Assembly: GCF_965277065.1 (NCBI RefSeq)
Contig: NZ_CBDIBT010000012.1
Location: 132-64,131, forward strand
Direction: 5' to 3'
Source: Mycobacterium sp.
Lineage (GTDB): Bacteria > Actinomycetota > Actinomycetes > Mycobacteriales > Mycobacteriaceae
DNA length: 64,000 nt
Of the stretch, positions 35,257-54,761 are shown piece after piece. The position numbers and the translations under genes were made by a program. Within the stretch, counting starts at the first letter, position 1; each line of letters begins with the position of its first letter. Under the pieces are notes generated by a model that saw nothing but the letters and a program-made list of their open reading frames with translations, was not told the origin of the DNA and searched no databases.

Positions 35257-35991
35257 ATGTCTAGCATCAGCGACCAGCTGATGTTCCGTTATCTTGAACC
35301 GGTTCAGCTGAACCAGCTTCTCGTCCCTCCGTCGGACGCCAATCGGCAGCAGGTGAGAGCGCTGCTAGCTCAGGTCTACGACCCCGGTCTTTTGACCGTG
35401 AAGTCGGTCGACGGCGTCACCGTGATGTCCCAGAGTTTCCAGGTGCCGGCCGTCGACTCGGCCACAGTACGCGGGACGTGGGAGAAGGTCAGCCCTTCGC
35501 CCGAACGTGCGAACTACAGCTTCGGCTTGCCAATCCCCGCCCAAACCAGCTGGGTCGACATGGCTCTGGATACAACCGTCAACGTCCGAGTCGCCGCCAC
35601 ATCCCCCGTCCTGGCCGCCGTCAGCTCAAGCGATGTCGCGGGGTCTTCACCGCGGGACTTCGGCAAGAAGTTCCAGCTCCAGTACGCCGAACCGCCCGCC
35701 TTCAACGCCGACGACCCCGCCGTCAAACGGACTTACGCCCTGCGCGTCTCGGTACTGTTTTTCCCCACCCTCGACATCGAGAGCGCTCTGCGCCGCATGG
35801 TTCAGGGCCGCCAAGCCCTCGATGCGCTGCGTTCTCATCCCGACACTTACGAGGGAGGAGATGTTCTGTCCTCCAGTGCTTGGCTGGGTGTGTTTCCCAC
35901 CAGCTTGTTCGTACCTAACGGGATCTCCCAGGACCAGGTGTCGACCCTCTTCGCGGCCGACAGCTTCGCTGCAGCGTTCGTCACAATCTGA
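35257..35991 (+). CDS. hypothetical protein, first gene of the contractile-tail-like cluster
   Basis: ATG at 35257 (MSSISDQLMFRYLEP..), 244 aa. No motif recognised, and it does not obviously look like the DUF4255/Afp16 cap family. Assigned to the cluster by position only. Confidence 0.5.
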   Translation: MSSISDQLMFRYLEPVQLNQLLVPPSDANRQQVRALLAQVYDPGLLTVKSVDGVTVMSQSFQVPAVDSATVRGTWEKVSPSPERANYSFGLPIPAQTSWVDMALDTTVNVRVAATSPVLAAVSSSDVAGSSPRDFGKKFQLQYAEPPAFNADDPAVKRTYALRVSVLFFPTLDIESALRRMVQGRQALDALRSHPDTYEGGDVLSSSAWLGVFPTSLFVPNGISQDQVSTLFAADSFAAAFVTI

Positions 35992-36016
35992 ACCGATTTC
36001 AACCAGGAGGCTGACC

Positions 36017-36196
36017 ATGGCAGACAAAACTCCAGACAAAGCCGGAGAGCAGGGCGACGTCAGCCCGTCCGCGACAGCGTCCGCCGCAGACGATGCTGAA
36101 CCTGCTGTAGAGCTCTCCCCGCCGCCCCAACACGACCTGCTCGAGCTGGAACGGCTTCGGTCTCGCCTGGTCAGGAAATTCCACGGAAGGAAATGA
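36017..36196 (+). CDS. 59-aa small protein preceding the sheath gene
   Basis: AGGAGG at 36005..36010, then ATG at 36017. MADKTPDKAGEQGD..PQHDLLELERLRSRLVRKFHGRK, an acidic/Pro-rich N-terminus with a basic helical C-terminus. It ends 3 nt before the sheath start. Confidence 0.5.
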   Translation: MADKTPDKAGEQGDVSPSATASAADDAEPAVELSPPPQHDLLELERLRSRLVRKFHGRK

Positions 36197-36199
36197 CCG

Positions 36200-37510
36200 A
36201 TGCCTGTCAAGTACATCGATGTCACGGCAAAAAGCGACCTTTTTGTTCCGGCGACGAGAGCCTTCGGTGACATTGCCATCGTCGGGAAGGGCGTAGGCGC
36301 GTCGGGTGCGTCGGGGCCGCACGAGTTCACCGACCCGGCCTCACCCATCGCCGCCTACCTCACCCGCTCGGTCGCGGACGCAGTCATAAAAAGCGGTAGC
36401 ACCACGGTCACCTCCGCGGCGAACGGTTTCGCTACCTCAGACGTCGGCCGTGCGGTAACCGGTACGGGGATCCTGAGCGGCACGACCATCGTCAAGGTCA
36501 CCAACGCTGGGAGCGTCGAACTGAGCGCCGCGTCGACGGGCGCCGGGACAGGCGTCGCCTTAAGTGGCCTCCCGGGCGAGCACAGCGACCTCGGCGACGC
36601 GATCGCGATGGCGTTCCGACAGTCCCCACCGCCGACGAGGGTCTGGGGTGTTCAGGTGGACGCCACCACGCCCGATTGGGACACGGCATTGACCGCAGTC
36701 GCGAAGCTCGACGTCCAGATCGTGGCACTGGCCAACACACCGCTGAACAGCTCCACCGCGCAGACAGTGGACAAGCTCGCCACCCACGTCAGTACGGTGT
36801 CCAACACCGGAGGCGACGGCAAGGAGCGGATCGGCGTCGCGATGCTCGACTCGTCCTTGACCGCCTCCGCGCAGGCCGCCCTCAACACCGGCACCGTGGC
36901 GAACGAACGCATGTTCCTGATCGCCCACCGGTCCAGTGAGGACGTGGCCGCTGCGGCGGCGGGTGTGATCGCTGGTGTCCAACCGCACATCTCGGTGCTC
37001 CTCAAGCCGATCAACATCAACCAGGACCCTTCTCGCGGTTTCTCCGACAGCGAAATCGACACCCTCGACAGCGCTTTCATCAACTGGGTCACCAGTCCCG
37101 TCCTGATCCCCGGGAGCGGCGTCTATCTCGGAGAGGGATACACCGCCAACCCGGGTCAGGGGAACAAAAAATATATCGACGTCGTGCGCACCCTGGACGA
37201 CATCAACTTCCGCGTGAAGGCCGAGCTCATTCAGGCCATGGGCAACTTGCGCGTAAGCCGTTCCGGGTTGCGGGCCATCGAAACGCTGGTTGAAGCGGTC
37301 CTCTCGCCGCTGATGGCGCAGGCGGTGATAGAGGATTATTCCGTTTTCATCCGTCTGCTGGTCTTGCTTAGTAAGGACCCGGCCTCATTGAGCGCGGCCG
37401 AACTGCAAGAGATCCAGGACGCCCAGGCCTCCCGGAAAATTGATATGGCCATCAACGTCACTTATGCCGGCGCAATCCACCGGCTCCATATCGATCTGGT
37501 CTTCAAGTAG
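36200..37510 (+). CDS. contractile tail sheath protein
   Basis: 436 aa. The C-terminal half (..FINWVTSPVLIPGSGVYLGEGYT..KKYIDVVRTLDDINFRVKAEL..GLRAIETLVEAVLSPL..VTYAGAIHRLHIDLVFK) parallels the conserved sheath C-terminal domain. It is followed directly by a tube-sized gene. Confidence 0.75.
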   Translation: MPVKYIDVTAKSDLFVPATRAFGDIAIVGKGVGASGASGPHEFTDPASPIAAYLTRSVADAVIKSGSTTVTSAANGFATSDVGRAVTGTGILSGTTIVKVTNAGSVELSAASTGAGTGVALSGLPGEHSDLGDAIAMAFRQSPPPTRVWGVQVDATTPDWDTALTAVAKLDVQIVALANTPLNSSTAQTVDKLATHVSTVSNTGGDGKERIGVAMLDSSLTASAQAALNTGTVANERMFLIAHRSSEDVAAAAAGVIAGVQPHISVLLKPININQDPSRGFSDSEIDTLDSAFINWVTSPVLIPGSGVYLGEGYTANPGQGNKKYIDVVRTLDDINFRVKAELIQAMGNLRVSRSGLRAIETLVEAVLSPLMAQAVIEDYSVFIRLLVLLSKDPASLSAAELQEIQDAQASRKIDMAINVTYAGAIHRLHIDLVFK

Positions 37511-37527
37511 CAGGCACAGGAGAGCTC

Positions 37528-37938
37528 ATGCCATCAACCGCACCCGACACCCTCAAGTGGGATACCCGGCTCACAGTCATGGTCGGCACCACGGTGGTGA
37601 CGCCCATCGAAAATTTCAACCCCACCTTCACCACGCCCGTCCAGACCCTGCACTCGCTGGAGGCCGACAACGTCGCCCACATCGTTCAGCCCCAAACCTT
37701 CACCTTCACCATGCAGGTCAAGGCGATCGGCCCGGTGGTAGCGACCCTGACCGACATCGCCCTCAAACACACGTCTTTTAGTGTGGCAATATCCGAGGCC
37801 AGCGGCACCGACTGGACCTTCCAAAAAGTCGCATTCCGCGACTGCTACATCACCTCGGTGAACAACACCATCCAGCCTGACCAATCTCCCAACGCGAGCT
37901 TCAATTGCATCTGCCTTGACATGGAAACCACGGTCTGA
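37528..37938 (+). CDS. tail tube protein (candidate)
   Basis: 136 aa, beta-rich, immediately downstream of the sheath gene. Size and position fit an inner-tube subunit. I do not see a diagnostic motif. Confidence 0.55.
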   Translation: MPSTAPDTLKWDTRLTVMVGTTVVTPIENFNPTFTTPVQTLHSLEADNVAHIVQPQTFTFTMQVKAIGPVVATLTDIALKHTSFSVAISEASGTDWTFQKVAFRDCYITSVNNTIQPDQSPNASFNCICLDMETTV

Positions 37939-37942
37939 CGTC

Positions 37943-38125
37943 ATGGCCGAGGACGAGAACCAGGAGCCCACGCCTGGGTCGGAGGCGGTGCTCGTTACCG
38001 CTGAAGGCCGGGACGTGCATTACCACTTCCCCGTTCACGTGGTCGTTGTCGGAGAACACAGCGACGACGTCACAAGCGAAATCGAGGCAAGCATCATGTC
38101 CAGCCTGTATTCGGCCCTCACCTAA
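37943..38125 (+). CDS. 60-aa protein carrying the shared N-terminal-type module
   Basis: ATG at 37943. ..RDVHYHFPVHVVVVGEHSDDVTSEIEASIMSSLYSALT. This module recurs at the N-termini of the next two giant ORFs. Confidence 0.5.
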   Translation: MAEDENQEPTPGSEAVLVTAEGRDVHYHFPVHVVVVGEHSDDVTSEIEASIMSSLYSALT

Positions 38126-38151: not shown

Positions 38152-40728
38152 ATGGCCGCCGTTCACTGCCACTTCCCGATCACAGTCCACGTCACCGGGC
38201 ACCTTGGCGCGGAGGCGCTTTACCAGCTCGCTGCCGAGGTGGAGCGGGCGGTGGCTGAGCGCATCGCGAGCGCGGAAACAGAGCTCTACCGGCACCCGGG
38301 TGCTCGCGCCGGCACGGGCGTCGTGCCAGGGAACCAGCGGGGTGAGGCGAGCACGGGCCTTGCGGGCGCCGACGAGATTGCCCGCCGCCCGGCCGGAACG
38401 AGGAAGCCAGTTGCCAGCGCAGGTGCGGCGGCGGCGCCGGGTCAGCGATTCCTGATCCATGTGACCGTCAACGAACCGGTCAGCGCCGCAGAGTTTTGTT
38501 TCCTGGCGGTCATGCAAGGCCTCGGCCTCGAACGGGACGAGGCCAAGCGGGTGATCGATTCGGGCACTCTTCGCTGCTACGGCTGGGCATCGACCTATGG
38601 CGTCGGACCCGAATGGGTTAACCATCCCATTCCCTTCTGGGTCGAATCCAGGCTCGCTCACCGCGCCGCGGAGACGCCGGTAGGCAGCATCTCCGACGTG
38701 GCTCTGGAACCCGGCGAACTTGCCGAAATCAGCGCCGAGGCCGATCAGCGATTCTGGGCGAAGATCGGCGAGTATCGGACTCTTTCGAAAACCGATCCGC
38801 GCGACGCCGCCTACCGTGAACTCTGGAAATCGGAGTACGACGCCCTACTGCGGGAGCGGCATCCGATCGCCACGGGGGGTGAGCCCGATGACGATCCGTT
38901 CTCTGCGGACCTGCGGCGCTTTGTCACAATCGCGGGCTTACCCACGGCGGCCCCACATCAGGAAATCGACCCTGAGCAGATGTACTGGATGCAGAAGGTG
39001 CAAGAGATTCTCGCCGGTATCAGCGAACGCGACTGGAAGCGACTGCAGCGCATCGGTCTGCCCCAGAGTGACTGGCAGGGGCTGTCTGCGTGGGTTTCCC
39101 GGTTCGTGGAGGATCAGCGCGCATTGGACCACGCGATCGAAAAGGTCGGACGAATGGACGAATTCGGCGGTCTCGACTCCGCGTACGAATCAATTCGCGG
39201 AGAAGGTCGAGGATCACGCGATGACGTTGAAGGGGAGGCATACGCTCGCTCCTCGGAACTGGACGAAGCCGCCGGAGCGTTTCGCGACAGGTTCCAGGTC
39301 CGAGCAGTTGAGATAACGCTCGAGATGCTGCGATATGCCGAGGTTGCGTTGGAGACGGTACGCGAACGAATGCACATTCGGCGGGAGCGGGAGTCGCTTT
39401 TCTCGGCGTTAGCCAACAACGATTCCGAGGTTTTGGCACGCGATCCCGCATTGAGCTATCCCGACATTCTCGAATCGGCGCATAACTCGACAACCCCGGA
39501 CGACCTCGGCGAGAGGTTGCGGGGCAGCATCTACCAGCAGATCGAGCGGATAAAGTTTGTCCGCGAGAACCTTGATGAAAAACCGAACGTCGTCTTCAAC
39601 TTCGACGTCGTGGTTGCAAACACGTTGGTCGAGCTTGGGCTCGGCGAATCGATCCACGCCGAAATCATCAAGAGAGGGTGGGGCTCGTCGGACGGCAGTT
39701 CTCTCTTTGAGAAGCTGCTCGAGCTGGGGAAGATGCTGCTGATTTTCGTACCCGTGATCGGTGAAATCTACGGCGCGATCGAAGGTTTTCAGGGATTCCG
39801 CGAGGCCGTGAAGGACTACGGTGCCCAGGATGATGCGTTTGAGCTCGGCCTGCGAACGACTGAGCCGAGCAAGGTGGGCATCCTATGGGGAACCGTCGGT
39901 CTCGTTGCGGGCGGTGTGCCGATTGCGCACTCAATCTCGAGTACTGCGAGGGGTTTTGGACAGTTCGAAACCGGTGTGGCCGGCGAAGCGACCACACTGG
40001 GGCGGGCCGAGACGGGCGCGGCGGCCGCCCAAACTGGTGAAGTCGTAGCACCGCAAACGGACGAAGTTCCAACACCCGGGGCGCGAGACGCAACAGAGGG
40101 GATAGAGGGCGGCGACAGCGCCGAAATACCGACTGCGGCTATCGATACGCAGCCTCCGCCAGACAAGCTCTTGCTGTTCCATGGCACAGATCAACCGGGC
40201 TTTACCGAGGGCAGAATCAACGTCGCTCATGCGGGGGGCGAGCACCAAGACCTGAGCCAGGGCTTCTATCTCACGGAGGACAGGGAGCTGGCGGAGGAAT
40301 ACGCCCACATGCGGAGCAAGCAACGCAGCGTGATTCCGAACGTCGACGAGCGTGGCCTCCACGGGATGACCTACACGCACGGTTGGGACGTCGCACTCGA
40401 GGACCTTGGAGACGTCGTGGACATCCGGCGCGGAGGGCAGGATCGCGCAGCTTGGGACGCATTTTTAGAGGAGCCGCCGTTCAGTGTTCCCATCCCGGGA
40501 ATGCCAACCCGACGAATCTATCTCCAGAAGCTCGGCGCCGACCGGCGCGGCATCGTGTTCGAGCAATTCCTGGGGTCGGTAGGCAAGTCCGACGCGGATG
40601 TGATTGTCGCGCCCCTCGGGGACGACGTTTTTATCGGTATCACAACGGGACAGGAATCGACACAGGTCGTCATCCGCTCACAGAAGGCGGCCGACGTACT
40701 CAACGCGATCATTAGGACTGCACAATGA
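38152..40728 (+). CDS. 858-aa multidomain protein at the tape-measure/cargo position, with a PARP/DUF3990-like C-terminal domain
   Basis: N-terminal module MAAVHCHFPITVHVTGHLGAEALYQLAAEVERAV. Helical middle. Two hydrophobic stretches (MLLIFVPVIGEIYGAI, VGILWGTVGLVAGGVPIA). C-terminal ..LLLFHGTDQPGF..DLSQGFYLTEDRELAEEYA..ADVIVAPLGDDVF..QVVIRSQKAADVL.., resembling H-Y-E type ART/DUF3990 layouts. Confidence 0.7.
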   Translation: MAAVHCHFPITVHVTGHLGAEALYQLAAEVERAVAERIASAETELYRHPGARAGTGVVPGNQRGEASTGLAGADEIARRPAGTRKPVASAGAAAAPGQRFLIHVTVNEPVSAAEFCFLAVMQGLGLERDEAKRVIDSGTLRCYGWASTYGVGPEWVNHPIPFWVESRLAHRAAETPVGSISDVALEPGELAEISAEADQRFWAKIGEYRTLSKTDPRDAAYRELWKSEYDALLRERHPIATGGEPDDDPFSADLRRFVTIAGLPTAAPHQEIDPEQMYWMQKVQEILAGISERDWKRLQRIGLPQSDWQGLSAWVSRFVEDQRALDHAIEKVGRMDEFGGLDSAYESIRGEGRGSRDDVEGEAYARSSELDEAAGAFRDRFQVRAVEITLEMLRYAEVALETVRERMHIRRERESLFSALANNDSEVLARDPALSYPDILESAHNSTTPDDLGERLRGSIYQQIERIKFVRENLDEKPNVVFNFDVVVANTLVELGLGESIHAEIIKRGWGSSDGSSLFEKLLELGKMLLIFVPVIGEIYGAIEGFQGFREAVKDYGAQDDAFELGLRTTEPSKVGILWGTVGLVAGGVPIAHSISSTARGFGQFETGVAGEATTLGRAETGAAAAQTGEVVAPQTDEVPTPGARDATEGIEGGDSAEIPTAAIDTQPPPDKLLLFHGTDQPGFTEGRINVAHAGGEHQDLSQGFYLTEDRELAEEYAHMRSKQRSVIPNVDERGLHGMTYTHGWDVALEDLGDVVDIRRGGQDRAAWDAFLEEPPFSVPIPGMPTRRIYLQKLGADRRGIVFEQFLGSVGKSDADVIVAPLGDDVFIGITTGQESTQVVIRSQKAADVLNAIIRTAQ

Positions 40729-40928
40729 TCGGCGAGCCGGCAGAACTAACAACATCGGATCTTCGGTCCGCCGCGCCCCGCGTCTGCCGAAGCGTTCCCC
40801 AAATAGGCAAGTAGTTGAGTGGTTCGACCGTCAGTGGCGTAGCTCGCTGGCGATTCCTTCTCGGCCGTAACACATTTCACCGTCACCAGGTTGTCGATTA
40901 GATCGCCGCTTGACGCACGCCGGCGGCT

Positions 40929-40957
40929 GCGTGTGGTCCGCTCAGCGGACCACACGC
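40929..40957. terminator. perfect 13-bp stem / 3-nt loop hairpin
   Basis: GCGTGTGGTCCGC-TCA-GCGGACCACACGC, with every pair Watson-Crick. It lies ~200 nt after the stop of the 858-aa ORF, inside the 655-nt gap. There is no clear U-tract, as is common for actinobacterial terminators. Confidence 0.4.
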
Positions 40958-41383
40958 TTGTCCGAACCGGCCCGATCGACGCGAAATGGTATACGCCGAG
41001 CTTCGGAGGAGGATTCATGGCCACGCGATGCGTATACGTAGCTCGGTGGCGGGCCGGGCGCCCGGCTGGTCATTGTCGCGCTTCGACCAACCGGGCCCCG
41101 TGTGGATTTGGCGGAGCGGGTGACAACGCTCCCGGTTGGCGTCGACGACCGTTGCCTCGTTTGTGCGAACGCACTTGTGGGCCGGCCCGGTGACGGGCAA
41201 TTGGCCCCTGGTCGAAGTGACGGACGGCGGAGACCAAATTCACCCAGGATGGCGTGGCGGGCGCACTCCTCGCAGCAATAGGTCGTACCCCTGAATGCAG
41301 GATCACCAGCGCATGAGCGACACAACTCCACGCGTGCGACTCCCGCCTTGCGTGCAGGAGGCAGCGGGCAAGGGGGCGGGCGG

Positions 41384-47077: not shown

Positions 47078-47553
47078 TGGCCACTCCCGGCAATAGCGGC
47101 GCCCCCAGCCTGGGCCTGAGCTTGATGCTCAACGTCGGGGACCTGGTTTTCGACCCGGGAACAGGCGACCTTGACATCGTGCGGGAACAGCACGCTTTGT
47201 CCCAGGCCCTGCAGCTGGCGGTCCAGACGCAAGTCGGCTCCGACCGGATCAACGTCGGCTTCGGTTTCGACCAGCTCTCAGTAGGTGCGTACGCCTACGA
47301 CATTCACACCCGCAAGGAATACGTCAAGATGCAGCTGGTCAAGGCGGTCACCGGCGACCGCCGCGTCCGCGACGTCCGAGAAATCTTTTTCCGGGACGAC
47401 CCTCGCTACTTCGAACTGCACTCCATCGACGCCCTTTCTCAGCAGCAGATCATCGCCCGGGCCCGGGCCAGCCGCGAATACACCGTCTATGTAGTCATCG
47501 ACACCATCAGCAACGACACGCTGACCATCGAAGCCGGGGCCACCCTTGGCTGA
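47077..47553 (+). CDS. baseplate wedge protein, gp25/GPW-like
   Basis: TAATG overlap with the preceding gene. 158 aa with ..DIVREQHALSQALQLAVQTQVGSDRINVGFGFD..YVKMQLVKAVTGDRRVRDVREI.., resembling the GPW/gp25 fold family. Confidence 0.6.
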   Translation: MATPGNSGAPSLGLSLMLNVGDLVFDPGTGDLDIVREQHALSQALQLAVQTQVGSDRINVGFGFDQLSVGAYAYDIHTRKEYVKMQLVKAVTGDRRVRDVREIFFRDDPRYFELHSIDALSQQQIIARARASREYTVYVVIDTISNDTLTIEAGATLG

Positions 47554-47615: not shown

Positions 47616-48932
47616 ATGACTGATCAACAATTCGGCGTAACCCAAGAGGGATTCGTCATCAAAGGGATCGACCGCATCATCGCCGACCAGCAGGCCCGCG
47701 CCCGGATCATGTTCGGCGACGACGTGAACCTGGACCTCAGCTCAGGAAGCGCCCTGCGCAAGGTGATCGACGCCGTCGCTTGGGAAGCACAGGAACTGTG
47801 GCGCAGCTTGGAGGGGCAGTACTACGCGAACTTCGTCACCACAGCCACCGGCCCAAGCCTGGACCTGTTGGGCACCGACCTGGGCATCGCCCGCCGCAAC
47901 CTGCAAGCCGCCGGCAAGGTGACGCTCACCTTATCGAACAACCCACCCGGACGCAGTTACGTCCTGCCGGAGGGCGCGGTGATCCGTGTGGTGGCCGGTA
48001 CGCCCGTCCTGTTCCGCACCACCGACCCGGTCACCATGGGTGCCCATACCGTGGCCACGGTGGGTGTGCAAGCAGTGCAGCGGGGCCCAGGGTCGAACCT
48101 GGCCGCTAATCATTCGCTCGAACTGGACCCCGCTTGGGCCACCCTCCACCTGAATCTGGGCGCGGCCACCATCAAGGCCGCGAACATTCAGGCGATCAGC
48201 GGCGGCGAACTCCTGGAGGCCGACTCCGACTTTCGGGCTCGCCTGATCGGACTGCCCCGCGCGTTGTGGACCCAGGATGCTCTCCTGGCCGCGATCCTCG
48301 ACCTGGACGGGGTGCGTGACGCCACCATCTTTGACCCACTGGGCGGAGTGGACGTCTCCCAGAGCTACTTCAATATGTTCCTGTTCGGGCAGCGCGCATT
48401 CGCGCTGGAGCGCCAGGTCGGTTCCCCGTACTACTTCGACGTGGTGGTCGCGGTCGAACCAGGATGGCCCTGGCTCACCAGCGCGGGCAGCATCGCCGGG
48501 GTTTACGACGGCGTGCTGGATGTGGTCAAACAGTGGCGGCCAGTGTCCATTTTCCCCAACATCGTCGAAGCCAACCAGGTCGACGTCGGCCTGCGGGCCA
48601 CATTGGTGGTGCAGCCCGGTCACGACCCGGACGCAATCAAGGGCCAGATGATTGACTCCCTGCACACCCGCGTCAACAACCTACAGTTGGGTCGGCAAGT
48701 CCGGTACTCCGACGCCATGCTGCTGGCCCGGAGTGCGTCGGGGGTGGTCGACGTGCAGAACCTGCACCTGCGGCGCTGCCCGCCAGCCTTCGGAGGAATC
48801 AACTTCTCCGGGGGGTTCTTCGACCAATCAGTCGAGTTAGCCGTTGGCGAGAACCTGACGTTGGGTCCCGACGAGATCGCCATCTTCACCGTCGACTCGA
48901 CCCTCAGTGACATCCAAGTGGTGAACCAATGA
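47616..48932 (+). CDS. baseplate J / gp6-like protein
   Basis: 438 aa. ..SGSALRKVIDAVAWEAQELWRSLEGQYYANFVTTATGPSLDLLGTDLGIARR.. is the characteristic Baseplate_J N-terminal region. Confidence 0.7.
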   Translation: MTDQQFGVTQEGFVIKGIDRIIADQQARARIMFGDDVNLDLSSGSALRKVIDAVAWEAQELWRSLEGQYYANFVTTATGPSLDLLGTDLGIARRNLQAAGKVTLTLSNNPPGRSYVLPEGAVIRVVAGTPVLFRTTDPVTMGAHTVATVGVQAVQRGPGSNLAANHSLELDPAWATLHLNLGAATIKAANIQAISGGELLEADSDFRARLIGLPRALWTQDALLAAILDLDGVRDATIFDPLGGVDVSQSYFNMFLFGQRAFALERQVGSPYYFDVVVAVEPGWPWLTSAGSIAGVYDGVLDVVKQWRPVSIFPNIVEANQVDVGLRATLVVQPGHDPDAIKGQMIDSLHTRVNNLQLGRQVRYSDAMLLARSASGVVDVQNLHLRRCPPAFGGINFSGGFFDQSVELAVGENLTLGPDEIAIFTVDSTLSDIQVVNQ

Positions 48933-51900
48933 GGGCGGTGGAATTCCTGGATGTCATGAGTCGGGGCCTGACCCCGGTTTACAACCGGGGCATGGAGCGA
49001 CTGGAACTCGGCTTTGGCGATAAGGCCGGTGACGGCAGTACCTCCGTCGCTGCGTACGACTTTCAGGCCTACGCCGACCTTTACGGCGGTCTACTGCCAG
49101 ACTCGCCTCGGTACCTGCTGACACCCGGTTTCACCACGGCGGATCCGCTCACAGTCCGGGTTTGGTTCAAGTCCGGCCCTAACGCGGCCGAGGCGCCAGC
49201 GGATGTCGCGATCCCGGCTGGGTGGTCGGCTGGCCGCGGCGTCGCCATCCCGATCCCCGGGCCCGCGTCCGGGATCACCAGCCAGCTACGCCTGACCCGC
49301 TTTCAGCCCCAACTCCCCGCCTCGCCCAACGCCGCCGACTGGGGCATCACCGTCCTGCTCGGTAATCTGGCCAAGCTGCTGTGGGTGGTGGGCTGGGAAT
49401 ACGAAGAACTGGCCGCCCAGATGGTCGACGTCGCCGCCCAGCGCAACGCCGCCGCCGCCCATGGGTTCAGTCTCGACCTGCTTGGTCGAGATCTGGGCGT
49501 TCCCCGCTTTCCGCCCACGCCTTACACGTGGGACCCCGACACCGTGGCCCTTTACCACTTCGATGACTTGCCGCCAACGCCCCAGTCGCCAGTACCCATG
49601 TTGTCCGACGAACGCAGCCGCTACCAGCCGACCGGCGGCCATCCCGGTCAGCTGGTGGTGGGCGGGGTCAGCGCCGAACCGGGGCACAGCGCTCAGCCCG
49701 GGCGGTTCAGCCAGGCCTTCCGGTTTGAAGTTCCGCAAAGCTACGTGCTCATCAAGGACCACACCGATTTCGCTCTTCCCGCGGGCTCCTCTTTCACGGT
49801 GGAGGCGATTATCAAGCCCGACCGGGCGGTTACCGCCACCGGCGCGGTAATCGCGAAGCGAGTGACGCTCAATACCGTCGGCGACCCCGGCTGGGCGCTG
49901 ACCATCGGCTCGTTCCGGGGCTTCGACCGCAACCTGCGCTTGTCCCTGTCCGACGGCGCCCAGGAGGTCGACCTCGAGTTGTTCTGCGACGCCGACCTCG
50001 GAGACGGGATCTTCCACCACGTGGCCGGGGTCGTTGAGCGCCGGGCCGGACCGCCCGCCGTCACGCTGGCACGGCTATACCTGGACGGGGTGGAAGTGGC
50101 TCGCCAGACGCTGGACACCCTGGGCGCGCTGAGCAATTCCGAGCCGATCCGCATCGGCTACGGGCTCGAGCTGGCGACTGCGGCGCCCACCGACGCCCAA
50201 TTCGTCGGGCTGGTCGATGAGGTGCGCATCTCTGCGGTGGCGCGGGACACCTTCAACCCGGTGGTCGGTGAGGGTGACGACCGGTACCGGCGCCGCCTGC
50301 GGGTCTTTCAGCGCTGGGTGCTGCCGACGCCCGACGCAATCCAGGCGGCGATCAACGAGTTGGCGGGTCCGGTCGCCAACGACCCCCATCCGTTTATCGT
50401 GGATGAGACTGTGCAGCCGACGGTGATAGGGACGCTGCCGCTGCGGGTGCTTCCGGCACGCCTGCAGCCAGGACAGGGCGTCAGCTCCGACGGTGACTTG
50501 CGCAGCACCGAGGCCCAGGCGGTGGGCAGCGCGGCCGACGACGACTTCGACCCTGCCTGGCTGCGCCGCCACCCTGACCAAGCCCATCTCAGCTTCAACG
50601 GCACCGACAGCAACCGGATGATGCAGCGAGTCGTCAGCCAGGCCCTCGACGCGCTGCTCGACCGAATAGCTGGCGTGTCGGGCACGCTCACCGTTCTCGG
50701 CGCCTACGACCCGTCCGCCACCGACCTGCGACGGGTTGGCCGGGCTCTACTACTTATCCACGACCACATCAGCCCCGGCGACCTGGCTGTCCACGCCCAC
50801 GCGGCCGGGTTCGGCTGGGCCCGCAACCTAGGCACCGGCCAGGCGCGGGTGGCCCAACCCGTGGGCGAGGTGTTCAGCATCACTCCGCTGCCGACCGGCC
50901 AGGATCCCCAGCCGCCCGATGTGGTCGAGGGAAACGACCTGAATCTTGGCGTCGACCCCGACATCCTTTCGCCAGGCTCGTCCAGGGTCGCCGACGCGCA
51001 GGGGAGCTGGTCACTGGTCCGCTGTGGATTCGGGGACGCCACATTGGCGGTCAGCCCCCGGCCCAAGCTGCACGCGCTGGCGGCCGGCAACGTCTCGGTG
51101 CATCTGGAGGTGATCCGTAAACAACACACCGCCGGAGGCAGCAGGCGGATCAGAATAGGGCTGGCCGACACCAGTCTGGCCGCTGGCCAGACGATCGGCG
51201 GCGACGGTCGCAGAAACGTCACTGAGGCCGACGCGGCAGGGGCGCCCAGCCCCGACTTCGACGAGCTGTACCTGCAGACAACGTCGTTCGACAACCTCTC
51301 CACCGCAGTCAGTTACGGGGCGGCACCGGGTAACCGGCGCATGCAGCGGGGTGCCGCCGACGCGCTGAGTCGGCTCATCAAGCTGTTGTCTGCCACTCCA
51401 GGGACCCTCTCGGTGGTCAAGGCTTACGATCCCGCGGGCATCGGCCTTATTAAACAGGGCCGGGCGCTTTGGCTGAGCCATTCGAGTCTTTCCGCCTCCG
51501 CCCTGGCAGCGCGGGCCTTCGCGGCGGGATTCGACTATCTGCGCATCGAGCCTGGCCCGCCCCAGATCGTGCAAGCGGCGGTGGCCGCGGGAGAGCTGAT
51601 TGGCGTGCACGGAGTGCGCGAGGTCCAGGTGGGGACGTCTATTCCCATAGCGGTCGAGCCGCAAGCCGCACCTATTGGAGTCTGCTTCTCGTCCGATGGC
51701 GCTCGGGCCTACGTCGCCGAGCAGAGCAGCAGCCGGATTAGCTCCTTCACGCTCACCGCCAGCCCGGCCAACGCCTTTCCCCAGATCGTCGCCGACTCTT
51801 CGGCGGCGGTCCTGCCGGATCCAGTGGCGATCGCCGTCGCCGGCGGCCACCTGTACGTCGTTCATCGTGAGCTGGGGGTGATCGCGGTGCTTGACCCCAC

Positions 51901-53071
51901 CACCTTGGCTACAGCCACGTCCTTCGCCGCGGGAGCGCGTCCGATCACGCTCGCTGCCGACGGCGATCGCCTCTTCGTCGGCTGCGCCGGGACCACGGTT
52001 CCGACGTCGATAACGTTGGGCGCCTACGACACGCAGAGCAACGGCCAGGTGGGCAGCCTTGTCTTGCCCGCCATCCCGACCTGCATCGCCCCGATTCCCG
52101 GCGGCACCGCGCTCTACGTGGCCACCGTCGACAACCGGATCTGCCAGGTCAACCGGGCCAACCTCACGCTGACCGGGGCGCCTTTCGCCACGGGGGCGAA
52201 ACCGAGCAGCGCAGTGGTCACACCGGACGGCAAAAAACTCTACGTGGCCTGTGCCGCCGATGACCCTGGCAACCAAAGCGGCACGATCCGGGCATACACG
52301 ACCGGCAATAACACCCAGGTGGCAGTGATAACCGGCTTCCCCAGGCAGACCCAGCCGGTCCGGCTGACCGTGGCGGCCGATCAGAAGTACCTGTATGTGG
52401 CGACTGTCGGTCAAACGGCCGACCAGACGGGGCGTGTGCACGTGGTCGACCTGGCCACCGACACATTGAAGCCTCAGATCTTCAACCCGGGCGGCACCTC
52501 AAGCGCGCTGGCGGTGAGCCCGTCGTCGGCCCCGTATCAGACCTGCCTGTTGGCGGCCTCCGCGGACGCCGGGACGATTACCCTTGGCGACCCCGACCCC
52601 TTGGCCGGCGTGCCGCCGCGGCCTCCGCGAGTGGCATACTCGCTTGTTCTCGGCGCCGGCGGCGGGGAACAGTTGTCCTGGTCCACCGTTCCGCTCAGCC
52701 GGGGCCGGGTTGAACTGGCTTCCCTTGTCCGACCCCACACCCGCGTCCGCGGTTTGGCGCCGGGCGCGGCACTGATCCGGGCCAGTTATCTGCGGGGTGA
52801 CGGGAACCTGCCCTACCAATTCGCGGTGCGCCTAAACCCGAGTCTGGAAGGCCAGGCCCGCGTGACCATCCGGAAAGACCAGTACGACCTAGTGATGAAC
52901 GTCCTCAATTGGTTTCACCCAATCGGGGTGGAGGTGAGAACGGACCGTCTAAGGACCCATGTGGTCGAGCTGGCGGAGCTCGGCGACCTCTTTCCCGGTT
53001 ACACCTTCCCCGTTTTCCGCAACCCCGGCGTACTTCAGCCGGGCCCACCGATCCGACCTCGTGAGGACTGA
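48929..53071 (+). CDS. giant baseplate protein: gpI/gp7-like N-terminus fused to a LamG-like lectin domain and a YVTN-type beta-propeller
   Basis: ATGA overlap with the J-like gene. N-terminal ..LAKLLWVVGWEYEELAAQ..AAAHGFSLDLLGRDLGVPRF (P2 gpI-like). LamG-type block ..FTVEAIIKPD..GWALTIG..FHHVAGVVE..LYLDGVEVA..VDEVRISAVAR. At least 6 repeats of ..DG..(L)YVA...... in the C-terminal third (SSDGARAYVAEQ, GGHLYVVHRE, DGDRLFVGCAG, GGTALYVATVD, DGKKLYVACAA, DQKYLYVATVG). Confidence 0.7.
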   Translation: MRAVEFLDVMSRGLTPVYNRGMERLELGFGDKAGDGSTSVAAYDFQAYADLYGGLLPDSPRYLLTPGFTTADPLTVRVWFKSGPNAAEAPADVAIPAGWSAGRGVAIPIPGPASGITSQLRLTRFQPQLPASPNAADWGITVLLGNLAKLLWVVGWEYEELAAQMVDVAAQRNAAAAHGFSLDLLGRDLGVPRFPPTPYTWDPDTVALYHFDDLPPTPQSPVPMLSDERSRYQPTGGHPGQLVVGGVSAEPGHSAQPGRFSQAFRFEVPQSYVLIKDHTDFALPAGSSFTVEAIIKPDRAVTATGAVIAKRVTLNTVGDPGWALTIGSFRGFDRNLRLSLSDGAQEVDLELFCDADLGDGIFHHVAGVVERRAGPPAVTLARLYLDGVEVARQTLDTLGALSNSEPIRIGYGLELATAAPTDAQFVGLVDEVRISAVARDTFNPVVGEGDDRYRRRLRVFQRWVLPTPDAIQAAINELAGPVANDPHPFIVDETVQPTVIGTLPLRVLPARLQPGQGVSSDGDLRSTEAQAVGSAADDDFDPAWLRRHPDQAHLSFNGTDSNRMMQRVVSQALDALLDRIAGVSGTLTVLGAYDPSATDLRRVGRALLLIHDHISPGDLAVHAHAAGFGWARNLGTGQARVAQPVGEVFSITPLPTGQDPQPPDVVEGNDLNLGVDPDILSPGSSRVADAQGSWSLVRCGFGDATLAVSPRPKLHALAAGNVSVHLEVIRKQHTAGGSRRIRIGLADTSLAAGQTIGGDGRRNVTEADAAGAPSPDFDELYLQTTSFDNLSTAVSYGAAPGNRRMQRGAADALSRLIKLLSATPGTLSVVKAYDPAGIGLIKQGRALWLSHSSLSASALAARAFAAGFDYLRIEPGPPQIVQAAVAAGELIGVHGVREVQVGTSIPIAVEPQAAPIGVCFSSDGARAYVAEQSSSRISSFTLTASPANAFPQIVADSSAAVLPDPVAIAVAGGHLYVVHRELGVIAVLDPTTLATATSFAAGARPITLAADGDRLFVGCAGTTVPTSITLGAYDTQSNGQVGSLVLPAIPTCIAPIPGGTALYVATVDNRICQVNRANLTLTGAPFATGAKPSSAVVTPDGKKLYVACAADDPGNQSGTIRAYTTGNNTQVAVITGFPRQTQPVRLTVAADQKYLYVATVGQTADQTGRVHVVDLATDTLKPQIFNPGGTSSALAVSPSSAPYQTCLLAASADAGTITLGDPDPLAGVPPRPPRVAYSLVLGAGGGEQLSWSTVPLSRGRVELASLVRPHTRVRGLAPGAALIRASYLRGDGNLPYQFAVRLNPSLEGQARVTIRKDQYDLVMNVLNWFHPIGVEVRTDRLRTHVVELAELGDLFPGYTFPVFRNPGVLQPGPPIRPRED

Positions 53072-53074
53072 ATC

Positions 53075-53704
53075 ATGACCATCTCCTACACGCGAACCTT
53101 CGCCCACACCGACTGGGTCGACAACGTCGACCGGGTTCAAGCGGGCGGCGACAACGGCTTCAACGGACGCTTTCATAGCGTGGAGGCCGAATTCGACGTC
53201 GTCTCAGGCGTTTTCAATCAAGTCGGCACTCAGCTCGGGACGCTGGAGCAGCAAGTTTCAGCGCTCGGCACAGGAATCGCACGGACGGTCAGCATCGCGC
53301 CGGTGCTCGCCGCGGCGGGCCCGACGGGCTGGGATACCTCGAGCCCCGGCGTTGCTCGCAAGCCGTCGACCGCCACCAGCGCTCACGGCGCCGTGGCCGT
53401 GGCGCTGCCAGCGGGTGCCCAGATCACGGCGTTTCGGGCTCTCGGTAACAATGCGGGAACGGGTTCGATCCTCCTCGACTTGATGGGTCAGGGCCTCGAC
53501 GGCCAGGGTCAGGCACCCGTCGTGCGCATCACTATCAACGCCCAGCAGGCCCCATTCGACATCACGAAGAATCCCGTCGGCGGCTCCGGTCGCGATTTCA
53601 TCGACCCCGATTCGTCCTACTTCATCCTCGCGCGCCTAGATAATGCCGGGGCCGCCGACAACGTCTTCCTCACCGGCTTCCAGGTGCTCTACCAAGCCCG
53701 GTGA
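53075..53704 (+). CDS. tail-fibre-like protein (candidate)
   Basis: 209 aa. N-terminal ..FAHTDWVDNVDRVQAGGDNGFNGRFHSVEAEFDVVSGVFNQVGTQLGTLEQQVSAL (coiled-coil-like), followed by a beta-rich C-terminus. Its position after the wedge genes fits. Confidence 0.45.
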   Translation: MTISYTRTFAHTDWVDNVDRVQAGGDNGFNGRFHSVEAEFDVVSGVFNQVGTQLGTLEQQVSALGTGIARTVSIAPVLAAAGPTGWDTSSPGVARKPSTATSAHGAVAVALPAGAQITAFRALGNNAGTGSILLDLMGQGLDGQGQAPVVRITINAQQAPFDITKNPVGGSGRDFIDPDSSYFILARLDNAGAADNVFLTGFQVLYQAR

Positions 53705-53738
53705 GGCATCCACCGCTCATGAGTGAGGAGAAGAAATA

Positions 53739-54761
53739 ATGACCTGCAATAACCCTTCCGGAGAGACGCCGGGCATTTTAGTTGCTTGGCAAGACCAACC
53801 CGCTGATAACGGTGTCCGGCCGCTACCGGCAGCCGACGCGTATTGGACCAGCCCCAACGTCCGCCTCGCCGCGCCAAATGATGTGGCCGGTCTGATGAAC
53901 CCCGCGAACGCCAGCTGGGACATCCCGTGGGACGGCCACGTGGACGTGGGCACTGGATACACGCTATTGGTCAGGGTCCGCAATACCGACTCGAGTGTTC
54001 GGGCCGCGCCGTTGCACCTCGATGGGTGGGTGTCGGACTATACGGCGGGCGGCGTCGGCCCGGGATCGGCGATCCTGGATTCCAGTCACAACCCCGTCCA
54101 GTTCAGCGGGGCTGACGACGCCACCGACCTGCAGCCCGGGAACGTGCTGGTGCTGACGGGTGCACCGATGTGGACGCCGACCGTCTCCCAGACCAACATC
54201 AACGGCGGCCATGTCTGTGTGGCGGTCAACGTCTACAACGACCCAACCGCCAACGCCCCGGCCGATGGTGGACCTGTGGTTTCTGGCTTTCTCGATCCCA
54301 CCTGCGACCGAAGGTACGGGCAGCGCAACGTCCAGATCGTCACGGTCGGGGCCGGACAGCAGATCCGATTTCCCTTCATGGTGGCCGCGACCCGAGAGCG
54401 CCCGCTGGACGCGCGCGTCGAGGTCCTGCGTGCCGAACTACGGGAGGGTGCGGATGGTGCGCTTCAGCGTGTGCCGGTACTCGAACAGGCTGCCCGCATT
54501 CATGCGCTCACCGAACTCCGACGGCCCGACGGCGACCCGCTCGCTCATCTGGATATCGTCCATGAACGCGAAGGTCGTGGGAACCACACAAGTGTCCACG
54601 TGGAGCCGGGCGCGCGTGCACACCTGTACGTGACGCTGGAGGCGAAGGGCCAAAAGCCCGGCGAGGCTTACGCGTTCGACATCGTGACCACGGACATCAA
54701 GGCCAACGTCCGGTATGGCGCGGCGCGGGTGTACGTGCTGGTCACCGGTAAACCGCGATAG
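53739..54761 (+). CDS. beta-rich hypothetical protein, last gene of the cluster
   Basis: 340 aa (..AYWTSPNVRLAAPND..GYTLLVRVRNTD..HVCVAVNVYNDP..). No motif recognised. It is followed by ~1.2 kb without a convincing ORF. Confidence 0.5.
   Translation: MTCNNPSGETPGILVAWQDQPADNGVRPLPAADAYWTSPNVRLAAPNDVAGLMNPANASWDIPWDGHVDVGTGYTLLVRVRNTDSSVRAAPLHLDGWVSDYTAGGVGPGSAILDSSHNPVQFSGADDATDLQPGNVLVLTGAPMWTPTVSQTNINGGHVCVAVNVYNDPTANAPADGGPVVSGFLDPTCDRRYGQRNVQIVTVGAGQQIRFPFMVAATRERPLDARVEVLRAELREGADGALQRVPVLEQAARIHALTELRRPDGDPLAHLDIVHEREGRGNHTSVHVEPGARAHLYVTLEAKGQKPGEAYAFDIVTTDIKANVRYGAARVYVLVTGKPR

Follow-up and report, generated by a model that had tools for sequence, protein, structure and literature searches.

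A contractile phage-tail-like gene cluster with predicted toxin domains in its tape-measure module, from a Mycobacterium genome

A cluster at 35257-54761 on the + strand of a 64,000-nucleotide stretch of Mycobacterium sp. DNA (the window) encodes, with a probability that we put at about 0.7, a complete, single-shot, headless contractile particle of a separate lineage with toxins built into its tape-measure module. A sheath, a gp25-type initiator, a gp6/J wedge, a Dit-like initiator and a VgrG-type spike are present within a conserved gene set, and the proposal of a stand-alone contractile phage-tail-like cluster, made in a sequence-only reading of this DNA, is upheld. Because the order of g01 to g14 is kept in more than 60 independent genomes, the cluster is not a product of chance.

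Results

Layout and surroundings of the cluster

An ORF check together with our own count gave 16 co-directional, tightly spaced genes, all on the + strand. The sequence-only reading was correct in coordinates and strand but counted 17 ORFs, a number that is reached when a non-conserved ORF at 34215-34547 is included; the start/stop overlaps that it listed at 44518, 44931, 46703, 47077 and 48929 are genuine. The otherwise compact operon is broken by a 655 bp non-coding spacer between g05 and g06 (40729-41383), in which we found neither a credible ORF nor homology to related loci.

The region around the cluster is island-like and lower in GC. A tyrosine recombinase gene, truncated, lies 19 kb upstream (15807-16697, - strand), where it adjoins two tRNA-Lys genes and toxin-antitoxin genes. 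The earlier statement that no integrase is nearby is thus true of the immediate neighbourhood but not at that distance. Toxin-antitoxin and defence-like genes abound in the neighbourhood, and actinobacterial markers are found in the flanking genes (PknH_C, DUF4333 and an LppU/SCO3897-family lipoprotein). When ten window proteins were checked against the collection, each either formed a singleton at 90% identity or was missing from it. The window GlgX came closest to proteins from metagenomes, and its best named relatives were Acidobacteria MAGs, at ~70%.

Sheath, tube and upstream small proteins

The first gene, g01 (35257-35991), codes for a conserved 244-aa protein that is syntenic in most related loci, always 5' of the sheath gene, and for which 1.84 billion proteins yielded no more than 65 representative clusters. 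Its AF2 model is confident (pLDDT 88, pTM 0.81) and gave no significant structural match in PDB or BFVD; judged from this model, g01 is not a recognisable cap or terminator. Immediately 5' of the sheath gene is g01b (36017-36196), which at 59 aa is absent from length-filtered ORF lists. It is preceded by a GGAGG ribosome-binding site, carries an ELERLRxRL motif in a basic C-terminal helix, and has weak, position-consistent matches 5' of the sheath gene in other loci (L023/L068, L024, L032, L034, L054, L059 and L070).

The contractile sheath is encoded by g02 (36200-37510), which matched phrog_279 tail sheath (E 2.5e-12) and DUF2586 (E 2.5e-4). The sole PDB match of its family profile was a 450-aa chain from the neck and helical tail of Shigella myophage Sf14 (9c39/9c3b, E 0.011), and its 528 homologues are named 'hypothetical'. 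The 136-aa gene g03 (37528-37938) comes straight after the sheath gene in every locus, distant ones included, a position that points to the inner tube. It had no Pfam, PHROG or significant PDB match, its best PDB matches being to the Hcp family and non-significant (E 0.7-0.9). Of the paired labels of sheath and tube given earlier, the first is borne out by the phrog_279 and Sf14 profile matches, whereas for the second the evidence is position.

Baseplate, spike and fibre components

We ran a family-wide Pfam/PHROG consensus scan on 131 homologues. The most conserved protein, g07 (44012-44521), is 70-78% identical to its Streptomyces counterparts and is a Dit-like tube initiator or hub adaptor; 19 of the family members scanned carried Pfam Dit_like, each of them traceable to the 22 g07 homologues, and the window protein itself matched weakly. 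Between g07 and the spike gene lies the syntenic g08 (44518-44940), a 140-aa baseplate-core protein with no PDB sequence match, which could be a plug or hub adaptor.

Although Pfam did not detect the spike, the AF2 model of g09 (44931-46706; pLDDT 71) resembles a VgrG-type fused hub and spike. Its top Foldseek matches were AlgoCIS 7aef_q (1.4e-15), Anabaena CIS 7b5h and PVC 6j0m_A, followed by S. coelicolor CIS 9gtr_q, T6SS VgrG, Afp8 6rbk_C, Mu gp44 and T4 gp27. The next gene 3', g10 (46703-47077), has invariant C13, H15, C53 and C70; two family members matched PAAR_motif (E 1.3e-4) and one matched CIS_spike_tip, and its position suggests a PAAR/DUF4280-like tip. In the family of g11 (47077-47553), the gp25-type sheath initiator, Pfam Sheath_initiator was found in 15 members and GPW_gp25 in six, and the baseplate families phrog_975, 120, 2669 and 43 in 12-20 members (best E 4e-14). 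The wedge protein g12 (47616-48932) matched Pfam Baseplate_J (E 9.5e-15) and phrog_6 (E 4.3e-45).

The 1380-aa product of g13 (48929-53071), a wedge or peripheral protein that keeps its position and length from locus to locus, matched Laminin_G_3 (E 2e-14) and a Lactonase-type propeller (E 2.9e-6), and its place in the gene order suggests a gp7-like wedge at the N-terminus. The fibre-like g14 (53075-53704) is conserved in all loci and has a conserved N-terminal attachment motif; the scan gave phrog_817 tail fibre for nine members, which we assign to the g14 group. The last gene, g15 (53739-54761), encodes a variable distal protein with matches of just 26-31% in nine loci and no Pfam or PHROG family match, a candidate receptor-binding protein; by position, both g14 and g15 may be fibres or receptor binders.

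Most of the labels given from the sequence held. The gp25-like (g11) and tube-initiator-like (g07) labels agree with the family-level Pfam/PHROG matches, the gp6/J-like label (g12) with Baseplate_J and phrog_6, and the gpD/VgrG-like spike with the match of the g09 model to eCIS and T6SS spikes at E 1e-15. The DUF4280/PAAR-like tip (g10) and gpI/gp7-like (g13) labels are consistent with position and weak matches, and the fibre-like label (g14) with weak matches.

The giant ORFs and their toxin tips

The two giant ORFs occupy the tape-measure position, as had been claimed; however, they are not plain tape measures, since variable toxin domains end them. From their sequences, we regard them as probable tape-measure-derived carriers of polymorphic toxin domains.

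Preceding them is g04 (37943-38125), a 60-aa module found in nearly all loci. In distant loci its N-terminal extension bears the sequence GGxVxETGxAxVHEGE, which matches a motif that annotated tape-measure proteins of haloviruses carry close to the C-terminus. All seven weak tblastn matches to the extension fell inside annotated tape-measure genes, near their C-termini (tblastn E 0.4; hhalign probability 83%), and the strand-Gly-helix downstream of it is colinear with the extreme C-terminus of those proteins. The VHxGE motif has been lost from the window's own g04. The module thus appears to be a stand-alone counterpart of the C-terminus of a phage tape-measure protein.

At its N-terminus, g05 (ORF-A, 38152-40728) carries a paralogue of g04 (jackhmmer, E 9e-20 and 5e-5), the two giving adjacent significant jackhmmer matches in nearly every locus. 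A hydrophobic segment lies near residues 520-536, and residues ~670-858 (nt 40159-40725) form an ART-like toxin domain. This matched DUF3990, a member of the ADP-ribosyltransferase clan (PMC7955679), at E 3e-5 with the whole protein and 8e-6 with the C-terminal 450 aa, the score being under the Pfam gathering score (24 vs 32 bits). The domain shares 43% identity (E 1e-40) with the C-terminus of ORF-B in locus L037, such that the ART-like tip is carried on ORF-A in the window and on ORF-B in L037.

In most actinobacterial loci the ORF preceding g07 shares ~30% identity with g06 (ORF-B, 41384-43906), which is likewise in the tape-measure position. Over the last 450 aa, g06 is 50% identical to ten Streptomyces loci with AHH nuclease tips, its last 200 aa cluster with L024 only, and it had no Pfam match and no recognised toxin. 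The N-terminus may be a third, diverged g04-like module, as seen by eye and in marginal matches in six other loci.

The last 200 residues of the big ORFs fell into 18 BLAST clusters. AHH nuclease was present in 21 of 64 C-termini and PT-TG in six, with DUF3990 in the window; AHH and PT-TG recurred in single-protein scans. A Tox-REase-9 tip was seen in Arthrobacter and an AHH tip in one Streptomyces locus. The nuclease-tipped ORFs, whose stop codon abuts g07, are not followed by an immunity gene. The unit of g04 and big ORFs moves together. Most actinobacteria have it between the tube gene and g07; in Acidobacteria, Planctomycetes, Alphaproteobacteria and an S. canus plasmid it is placed at the cluster 3' end.

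Distribution of related loci

Matching gene order was found in 64 species representatives, which rules out that the cluster is a rarity of one genome. These comprise 25 Streptomyces (S. venezuelae included), seven Kitasatospora, 13 other Actinomycetota and 19 non-actinobacteria, and none is from Mycobacteriaceae; related clusters were additionally found on one linear plasmid and in MAGs. Nearly all genes of the related loci are labelled "hypothetical protein". On sequence grounds, we conclude that the cluster belongs to a widespread family without annotation, which has its centre in Streptomyces and Kitasatospora.

S. venezuelae holds a family member (L011/L065) besides its canonical CIS. Once the canonical sheath gene was deleted, lysates contained no sheath-like particles (PMC10066040), and the family is therefore likely to be silent or rare under those conditions.

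Discussion

We propose that g05 and, more divergently, g06 each start with a g04 paralogous module that leads through a long linker to an exchangeable toxin domain. The g04-like modules would dock together in the hub/spike cavity as the baseplate assembles, and the long proteins may extend up the tube lumen, where they would set or accompany tail length. Contraction of the sheath would then push spike and tube into the target and expel the lumen proteins, the delivered cargo being the ADP-ribosyltransferase-like domain of g05 and the g06 tip. Because there is no ATPase, the particle would not be recycled. The route to the target would lie outside the cluster's coding, through either producer lysis or firing from inside the cell; no release function, holin or endolysin cassette is encoded in the cluster.

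Of the other explanations, the one that survives best, though we think it unlikely, is a cytoplasmic system like Streptomyces CIS-Sc that stays inside the producer and is fired there under stress, the nuclease or ART toxins that it had sequestered then killing the producer's cell as regulated cell death or abortive defence. Streptomyces provides a precedent (PMC10066040), as do the tape-measure-related effectors Sle1/Sle2 (PMC13277306); the cluster is without signal peptides, lysis genes and immunity genes, and the abundance of toxin-antitoxin and defence-like genes around it would also fit. However, fibre-like and lectin/propeller domains and a fast-varying distal protein fit external target recognition, polymorphic tip variation is the pattern of weapons against other cells, and no CisA-like membrane-anchor protein was seen.

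More doubtful is an R-type tailocin of the classical kind, in which a headless tail, once released, punctures and depolarises the membrane of related bacteria, with the giant ORFs as rulers and their C-terminal domains as accessories, such as parts active on wall or membrane. The lack of an ATPase, the tape-measure-like module that, as in P2-type tails, follows the tube and precedes the baseplate, the resemblance of g04 to a tape-measure C-terminus, and the fibre-like g14 and variable g15 are all in keeping with this. Yet the tips belong to toxin families that act in the cytoplasm (AHH nuclease, Tox-REase-9, ART-like), the PT-TG pre-toxin domain is a hallmark of polymorphic toxins, and the spike is a fused VgrG as in eCIS and T6SS, whereas P2/Mu-type pyocins have a separate hub and spike. 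The missing holin or endolysin cassette also counts against it, as does the failure to find a related phage: among 50,697 phage genomes the sheath had no relative and the J protein only ~30% partial matches, and the spike had no relative in IMG/VR.

We consider it very improbable that the cluster is what remains of a decaying prophage, namely the tail module left by a lost myovirus and now without function. The tRNA-Lys genes, truncated recombinase and lower-GC island-like stretch, and the spacer inside the operon, might be read in this way, but all 14 core genes (g01 and g02-g14) are intact, and the conservation of their order and protein identity (30-78%) across phyla points to purifying selection. 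Pfam and NCBIfam scans of the flanking ORFs gave no capsid, portal, terminase or lysis genes, and no head, packaging or lysis genes were seen up to 35 kb upstream, up to 9 kb downstream or beside any relative examined, which confirms the earlier claim of their absence; neighbours are non-phage and different in each genome examined. The lack of similar phages among the 50,697 genomes, and of an attR copy of the tRNA ends in the window, likewise speaks against a remnant.

Equally improbable is a canonical Afp/PVC-type eCIS with an ATPase and cap too divergent or encoded elsewhere: eCIS spikes best match the g09 model, CIS_spike_tip was found in one g10 homologue and the CIS Sheath_initiator family in 15 g11 homologues, but no Walker A motif (G/AxxxxGK[ST]) is present in any cluster protein or + frame at 35.2-54.8 kb, AAA+ and DUF4255 matched neither the window cluster nor the precomputed Pfam lists or annotations of relatives, no cap or terminator was recognised (g01, the only unassigned cap-sized protein, has a confident fold matching no solved one), there is neither a LysM hub nor a DUF4157 effector partner, and the Pfam sheath family PF04984 misses the window sheath and is recorded for 2 of 120 listed homologues. 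The absence of a detectable ATPase and cap, first reported from the sequence, accordingly holds in the window and family-wide.

We therefore favour the headless, toxin-carrying contractile particle, and standard annotation would appear to overlook a lineage of toxin-loaded injection machines present in many soil bacteria. Judged by its genes, this lineage is distinct from Afp/PVC-type eCIS, from T6SS and from P2/Mu-type tailocins.

Organisation of the gene cluster

Between 35.2 and 54.8 kb, the + strand of the window carries a tight series of co-directional genes with high third-position GC. The sequence-only reading had counted 17 ORFs in this run; we found that the co-directional arrangement stands, as do the overlapping start and stop codons placed at 44518, 44931, 46703, 47077 and 48929, which were seen again when the sequence was checked, but that the count does not, the number of genes being 16 and the ORF at 34215-34547 showing no conservation in related loci. 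A 59-aa ORF, g01b (36017-36196), has a GGAGG ribosome-binding site and is skipped by length-filtered ORF lists.

The otherwise tight operon contains a 655-bp gap (40729-41383) separating the two giant ORFs g05 and g06 (ORF-A and ORF-B, which we also call carriers), just 3' of the ADP-ribosyltransferase (ART)-like tip of g05. No credible ORF was present in the ORF listing of this gap when it was inspected for an immunity gene or gene remnant, and tblastx and blastn comparisons with all of the related loci returned compositional noise only; the gap may have been left by recombination, or it may be what remains of an immunity gene that decayed.

Structural components

When individual proteins were scanned against Pfam, PHROGs and NCBIfam, the three collections used for all family scans, the searches were mostly silent. 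The exceptions were the sheath g02, which matched phrog_279 (tail sheath, E 2.5e-12), g12, which matched Baseplate_J (E 9.5e-15) and phrog_6 (E 4e-45), g13, encoded at the position of a gp7/gpI wedge gene, which has LamG and beta-propeller domains, and g11, for which weak gp25 matches were obtained. For a family consensus, we also ran the scans on 131 sequences from related loci, each homologous to one of seven small proteins. Dit_like was found in 19 scanned members, attributable to 22 homologues of g07, while the g11 family matched Sheath_initiator (15 members), GPW_gp25 (6 members) and four baseplate PHROGs (12-20 members). Nine members of the g14 family matched a tail-fibre PHROG, and the g10 family, in which four Cys/His residues are invariant, matched PAAR_motif in two members and CIS_spike_tip in one.

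The 591-aa spike protein g09 was undetected by Pfam, and it was modelled with AlphaFold from 24 homologues (pLDDT 71). It can be seen from Foldseek comparisons that the model resembles the full-length spikes of AlgoCIS (E 1.4e-15), the Anabaena CIS, PVC, the S. coelicolor CIS and Afp, with E values of 1e-15 to 1e-10 for Alg8, Pvc8, Cis8 and Afp8, and that it also resembles T6SS VgrG and the hub proteins Mu gp44 and T4 gp27. Since the matches are to full-length spikes, the model indicates that g09 is a fused VgrG-type hub and spike. Between them, phrog_279, Foldseek on the g09 model, the g11 family consensus and Baseplate_J bear out the sheath, spike, gp25 and J assignments that had been made from the DNA alone, and the genes for the sheath, the sheath initiator, the J wedge, the Dit-like initiator and the VgrG-type spike are conserved as one unit.

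A profile of the sheath family gave one PDB match (E 0.011), to a 450-aa chain of the Shigella myophage Sf14 that is modelled in the neck and in the helical tail, and which we take to be the Sf14 sheath. No profile supported g03, which is called the tube because a gene for ~135 aa directly follows the sheath gene in every relative, and hhalign gave no match between the tube and g07 families. Profile searches of PDB sequences with g01, g07, the tube, g08, g10 and g04 likewise gave no significant match. We conclude that the tube, PAAR, gp7 and cap assignments are weak or positional. The sheath of the window and of part of the family (432-445 aa) contains a ~70-residue insertion rich in Gly, Thr and Ser (36335-36575, residues ~45-125), which is missing from members of 366-370 aa and which fits a variable surface domain.

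ATPase, cap, head and lysis genes

No Walker A motif was found in any frame of 35.2-54.8 kb, in agreement with the sequence-only reading. AAA+, DUF4255, LysM and DUF4157 domains were absent from the cluster and from the annotated or precomputed gene lists of its relatives, and DUF4157 was additionally absent from the window proteins, from 10 full-length giant ORFs and from the last 450 residues of 64 giant ORFs from relatives. The obvious candidate for a cap is g01, which is conserved and encoded 5' of the sheath. Its family is tiny, with 65 representative clusters among 1.84 billion proteins, and its model is confident (pLDDT 88, pTM 0.81); significance was reached neither in the PDB, where the best structural match had E 0.085, nor in BFVD, where it had E 0.0097 and was an uncharacterised Marseillevirus protein. 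Pfam gave no match to a DUF4255-type cap, for which the structure comparison covered the g01 model.

Head and packaging genes had been reported to be missing nearby, and this held for the 35 kb upstream, for the 9 kb downstream up to the end of the contig and for the surroundings of the relatives. Lysis families (holin/endolysin) were not found in the cluster or its flanks, where several small ORFs are without annotation, and neither ClpV, TssJLM nor TssB/TssC was detected among the cluster proteins and the scanned flanking ORFs; the sheath gene is single.

A tape-measure-like module in g04 and the long ORFs

The 60-aa protein g04 is found in nearly all loci, and in distant lineages it has the N-terminal extension GGxVxETGxAxVHEGExxxPAPGS. 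When the extended form was used in tblastn searches of phage genomes, all seven matches were annotated halovirus tape-measure genes, at a weak E value of 0.4. The match lies ~60-90 residues before the tape-measure C-terminus, and the rest of g04, a strand-Gly-helix, lines up colinearly with the extreme C-terminus; hhalign of g04 with the tape-measure protein gave a probability of 83%. The near-C-terminal VHxGE motif and the colinear end are both on g04 and absent from the long ORFs, and Pfam tape-measure families gave no match. We regard the tape-measure link, which is made through short motifs, as weak.

Begun with the N-terminus of g05, an iterative profile search gave two adjacent significant matches in almost every locus, one to g04 (E 1e-5 to 1e-12) and the other to the long ORF that follows, at its start (E 1e-13 to 1e-23); it is the strand-helix of which the long ORFs have paralogous N-terminal copies. 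A third, weaker copy of the module is present at the start of the second long ORF, or in tandem where the two ORFs are fused, and marginal matches were seen at the expected place in six other loci. The block of g04 and long ORFs lies between the tube and g07 in most actinobacteria, and after g14 in other phyla and on a Streptomyces canus plasmid. Tape-measure genes are known in two positions, P2-like and Afp14-like, which the two positions of the block would echo.

Toxin tips and immunity

We found that the C-terminal 450-aa segments of the long ORFs matched the AHH nuclease in 21 of 64 cases and the PT-TG pre-toxin in 6 of 64, while DUF3990, a member of the ADP-ribosyltransferase clan (PMC7955679), was matched once in 64, by g05 of the window (E 8e-6). 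Tox-REase-9 was found in an ORF of Arthrobacter sp. Leaf337, and the last 200 residues fell into 18 BLAST clusters. The g05 tip retains HGT and GFYLT motifs and shares 43% identity (E 1e-40) with the ORF-B tip of a related locus, L037; therefore one tip rides on different carriers. The region of g06 before its tip is 50% identical to AHH-tipped Streptomyces proteins, and its extreme tip is common only to L024, a locus of an uncultured Actinomycetota metagenome-assembled genome (MAG). No adjacent immunity gene was found, and the stop codon of the Streptomyces toxin ORF abuts g07. The long ORFs, like polymorphic toxins, have a conserved N-terminal part and recombining C-terminal toxin domains, and these comparisons show modules of apparent tape-measure descent joined to predicted polymorphic toxin tips.

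Distribution of the family and kinship with phages

Homologues of the sheath (528) and the spike (178) are named 'hypothetical protein' almost throughout. Loci were found by a pattern scan with two peptide patterns, using one genome per GTDB species, and because recovery hung on these two patterns the distribution is a lower bound. The scan recovered 64 loci: 25 in Streptomyces, S. venezuelae ATCC 10712 among them, 7 in Kitasatospora, 13 in other Actinomycetota, and 19 in Acidobacteriota, Planctomycetota, Alpha- and Gammaproteobacteria and Cyanobacteria together. With the spike protein as the only query the genomes yielded no match; an alignment query succeeded. The gene order g01-sheath-tube-...-g07-g08-spike-g10-g11-g12-g13-g14 is conserved at protein identities of 30-78%, one copy of the cluster is on a 269-kb linear S. 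canus plasmid, and the neighbouring genes are different in every genome and are non-phage. We found no description of the lineage in the literature, which is not proof of absence.

In tblastn searches of 50,697 phage genomes, the sheath had no match and J was ~30% identical over its N-terminal half only; the spike had no relative in IMG/VR. Three IMG/VR contigs of low GC content (36-39%), L073, L074 and L075, encode a tube and a sheath that is 32-34% identical; L074 and L075 carry J too, and L074 also has a g07-like gene. In L073, the two ORFs that were tested upstream resemble genes for a methyltransferase and a glycosyltransferase, not genes for a head, and therefore offer no evidence of phage origin. 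All three contigs may be cellular clusters mis-filed as viral.

Two accessory genes were seen in relatives of the cluster. In Acidobacteria and Alphaproteobacteria a protein of 860-930 aa with an N-terminal signal-peptide-like sequence and no counterpart in the window is encoded between g14 and the module of g04 and carriers (L032 17420-20164, L034 17503-20298, L056 17649-20219). Upstream of the cluster, at a distance of a few kb, Arthrobacter sp. Leaf337 (L068 2908-4767) and the S. canus plasmid (L070 15330-17210) carry a gene for a DNA/RNA non-specific endonuclease of ~620 aa, which may be an accessory effector; the window has none.

A family member is present in a chromosome arm of S. venezuelae ATCC 10712 (locus L011, also L065; 370739-392580), distinct from the published CIS-Sv cluster vnz_28865-vnz_28935, and is not mentioned in the CIS-Sv paper (PMC10066040). 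When the canonical cis2 sheath gene was deleted, S. venezuelae lysates no longer contained any sheath-like particles (PMC10066040), and therefore the second cluster is not visibly active in standard culture.

Host and genomic neighbourhood

The mycobacterial angle is the weakest part of the sequence-only reading; our main result is the family-wide picture together with the toxin-tipped tape-measure module. Ten window proteins that were looked up were singletons at 90% identity or missing from the collection. The flanks have actinobacterial signatures (PknH_C, DUF4333, an LppU/SCO3897-family lipoprotein and a kinase resembling M. smegmatis StpK7), none of the 64 related loci is from Mycobacteriaceae, and among named genomes the sheath, gp25, J and g13 proteins are closest to the uncultured Actinomycetota MAG and a 'Mycobacteriales bacterium' MAG (L024/L066). 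For a GlgX copy at 21547-23691 the nearest sequences are unnamed metagenome proteins (up to 85%), and its best named relatives, at ~70%, are from Acidobacteria/Bryobacterales MAGs and not from actinobacteria or mycobacteria; the contig of the best relative is not syntenic with the window. Either this gene was transferred, or it reflects poor sampling of the host lineage. We therefore place the host among the actinomycetes at large.

The stretch at 8-17 kb (features 7995-16697) looks like a variable island of conflict genes. It holds a zeta toxin/Phd antitoxin pair (7995-9084, - strand), two adjacent tRNA-Lys genes detected by ARAGORN (anticodons TTT and CTT; 9309-9461), an unannotated 319-aa ORF followed by a RES-domain toxin (10661-11305), an 851-aa SMC/RecF-like ATPase (12825-15380, - strand) and, near the two tRNA genes, a C-terminally truncated tyrosine recombinase (15807-16697, - strand). 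The tRNA-Lys pair, which borders an island-like stretch of lower GC content, is atypical in that only the first reaches the Rfam gathering score (36 bits), and an Rfam scan of the window returned one tRNA only. Neither tRNA-Lys 3' end has a second copy (attR) within the window, the contig of which stops 9 kb downstream of the cluster. Just upstream of the cluster are genes for two WD40 beta-propeller proteins of 552 and 689 aa (27847-32188) and an IclR-type regulator (33120-34049); the regulator at that place differs in relatives, being BTAD in Arthrobacter and PucR-like in one Streptomyces locus.

Proposed mode of action and significance

We tentatively propose that the family forms a class of its own among contractile injection systems, with no ATPase or recognisable cap, which would span Actinomycetota and several Gram-negative phyla and in which a tape-measure gene would have been turned into a platform for polymorphic-toxin delivery. 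Free g04 would combine with its paralogues, with which one or two long lumen proteins begin, into a mixed plug in the spike/hub cavity that anchors the carriers, the nuclease or ADP-ribosyltransferase tips of which would be swapped by recombination. We give this proposal, with all of its parts taken jointly, a probability of roughly 0.35. If it is true, model Streptomyces such as S. venezuelae would have a second, overlooked contractile weapon; to our knowledge, only one CIS has been described in this well-studied genus. The probable mode of action of the particle would be assembly on a baseplate with the g04-like modules in its hub cavity, the long carriers filling the tube lumen; contraction would then expel carriers and tips into the target, and the particle would not be recycled.

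Surveys of contractile injection systems use profiles derived from Afp/PVC or T6SS, and an AAA+ ATPase and a cap are commonly taken as hallmarks. This cluster family has neither, and most of its genes are below Pfam and PHROG detection; because the hallmarks are absent and the genes escape these collections, the family is named 'hypothetical' in every annotated genome examined. Fusion of toxins to tape-measure-derived carriers within the structural operon would be a different cargo-loading route and would tie polymorphic toxins directly, and in a testable way, to the tape-measure proteins of phages, and it would suggest a design rule for payload engineering, namely exchange of the C-terminal tip. 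With no immunity gene next to the nuclease and ART tips, questions arise of producer self-protection and of targets.

Comparison with known systems

Judged by its genes, the cluster would work like an eCIS or a tailocin, yet it fits none of the Afp/PVC-type eCIS, R-type tailocins, T6SS or prophages. With Afp/PVC-type eCIS (Afp, PVC, AlgoCIS, the Anabaena tCIS and Streptomyces CIS-Sc/SLP) it shares sheath and tube without a head, here as genes alone, a fused VgrG-type spike (Afp8), for which eCIS spikes are the best Foldseek matches, a PAAR-like tip, a gp25/gp6/gp7-type baseplate, toxin cargo and a stand-alone chromosomal operon. It falls outside that group because there is no AAA+ ATPase (Afp15; CDC48-like), no DUF4255 cap (Afp16) and no DUF4157 effector adaptor; it also differs in having no LysM hub (Afp7), a single sheath gene and a single tube gene, cargo fused to the tape-measure module itself and the conserved orphans g01, g01b and g08, and most of its genes are too divergent for Pfam eCIS and sheath models.

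R-type tailocins (pyocin R2, carotovoricin and diffocin) resemble the cluster in having no ATPase, and hence a single shot, in the tape-measure-like gene between tube and baseplate (the actinobacterial arrangement) and in the fibre-like proteins at the 3' end. The cluster is outside the tailocins because no relationship to P2, Mu or any other sequenced phage could be detected, because it has no lysis cassette and because its spike is fused, where tailocins have a separate gpD-like hub and gpV-like spike. Its enzymatic toxin domains, on proteins in the predicted lumen position, argue against tailocin-style membrane puncture without enzymatic cargo. The T6SS shares the VgrG/PAAR spike, the contractile sheath and tube and AHH- and ART-type effectors, whereas the cluster has no ClpV, no detected TssA-type cap and no membrane-complex match among scanned window ORFs or the Pfam lists and annotation of relatives, and it has a tape-measure-like module that the T6SS does not.

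Tape-measure-related CIS effectors are already known, namely Sle1/Sle2 of the Streptomyces lividans SLP (PMC13277306) and an S. davawensis effector (PMC11126660). These too have a long helical tape-measure-like carrier and a variable C-terminal functional domain, are packed in the particle, as is predicted for the carriers of the cluster, and have a small partner protein encoded adjacently. All of them, however, are of the canonical eCIS lineage and are found away from the tape-measure slot, and Sle1, the gene of which is not part of the structural operon, has a DUF4157 partner; unlike Sle1/Sle2, the carriers of the cluster sit in the tape-measure slot, their partner g04 is a putative tape-measure C-terminal module, and their tips are classical polymorphic-toxin domains (AHH, Tox-REase-9 and ART-like). 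Polymorphic toxin systems, including PVC-metallopeptidase and MuF-type phage-borne toxins (PMC3482391), have the same constant N-terminal trafficking part with recombining tips, the same PT-TG and the same AHH, restriction-endonuclease-fold and ART toxin families, and many PVC-type toxins, like those of the cluster, are without adjacent immunity genes (Zhang et al., 2012, PMC3482391). The cluster differs from them in that its constant part appears to be a tape-measure-derived module of a contractile tail, a form of trafficking absent from the secretion-route table of that survey (Zhang et al., 2012, PMC3482391).
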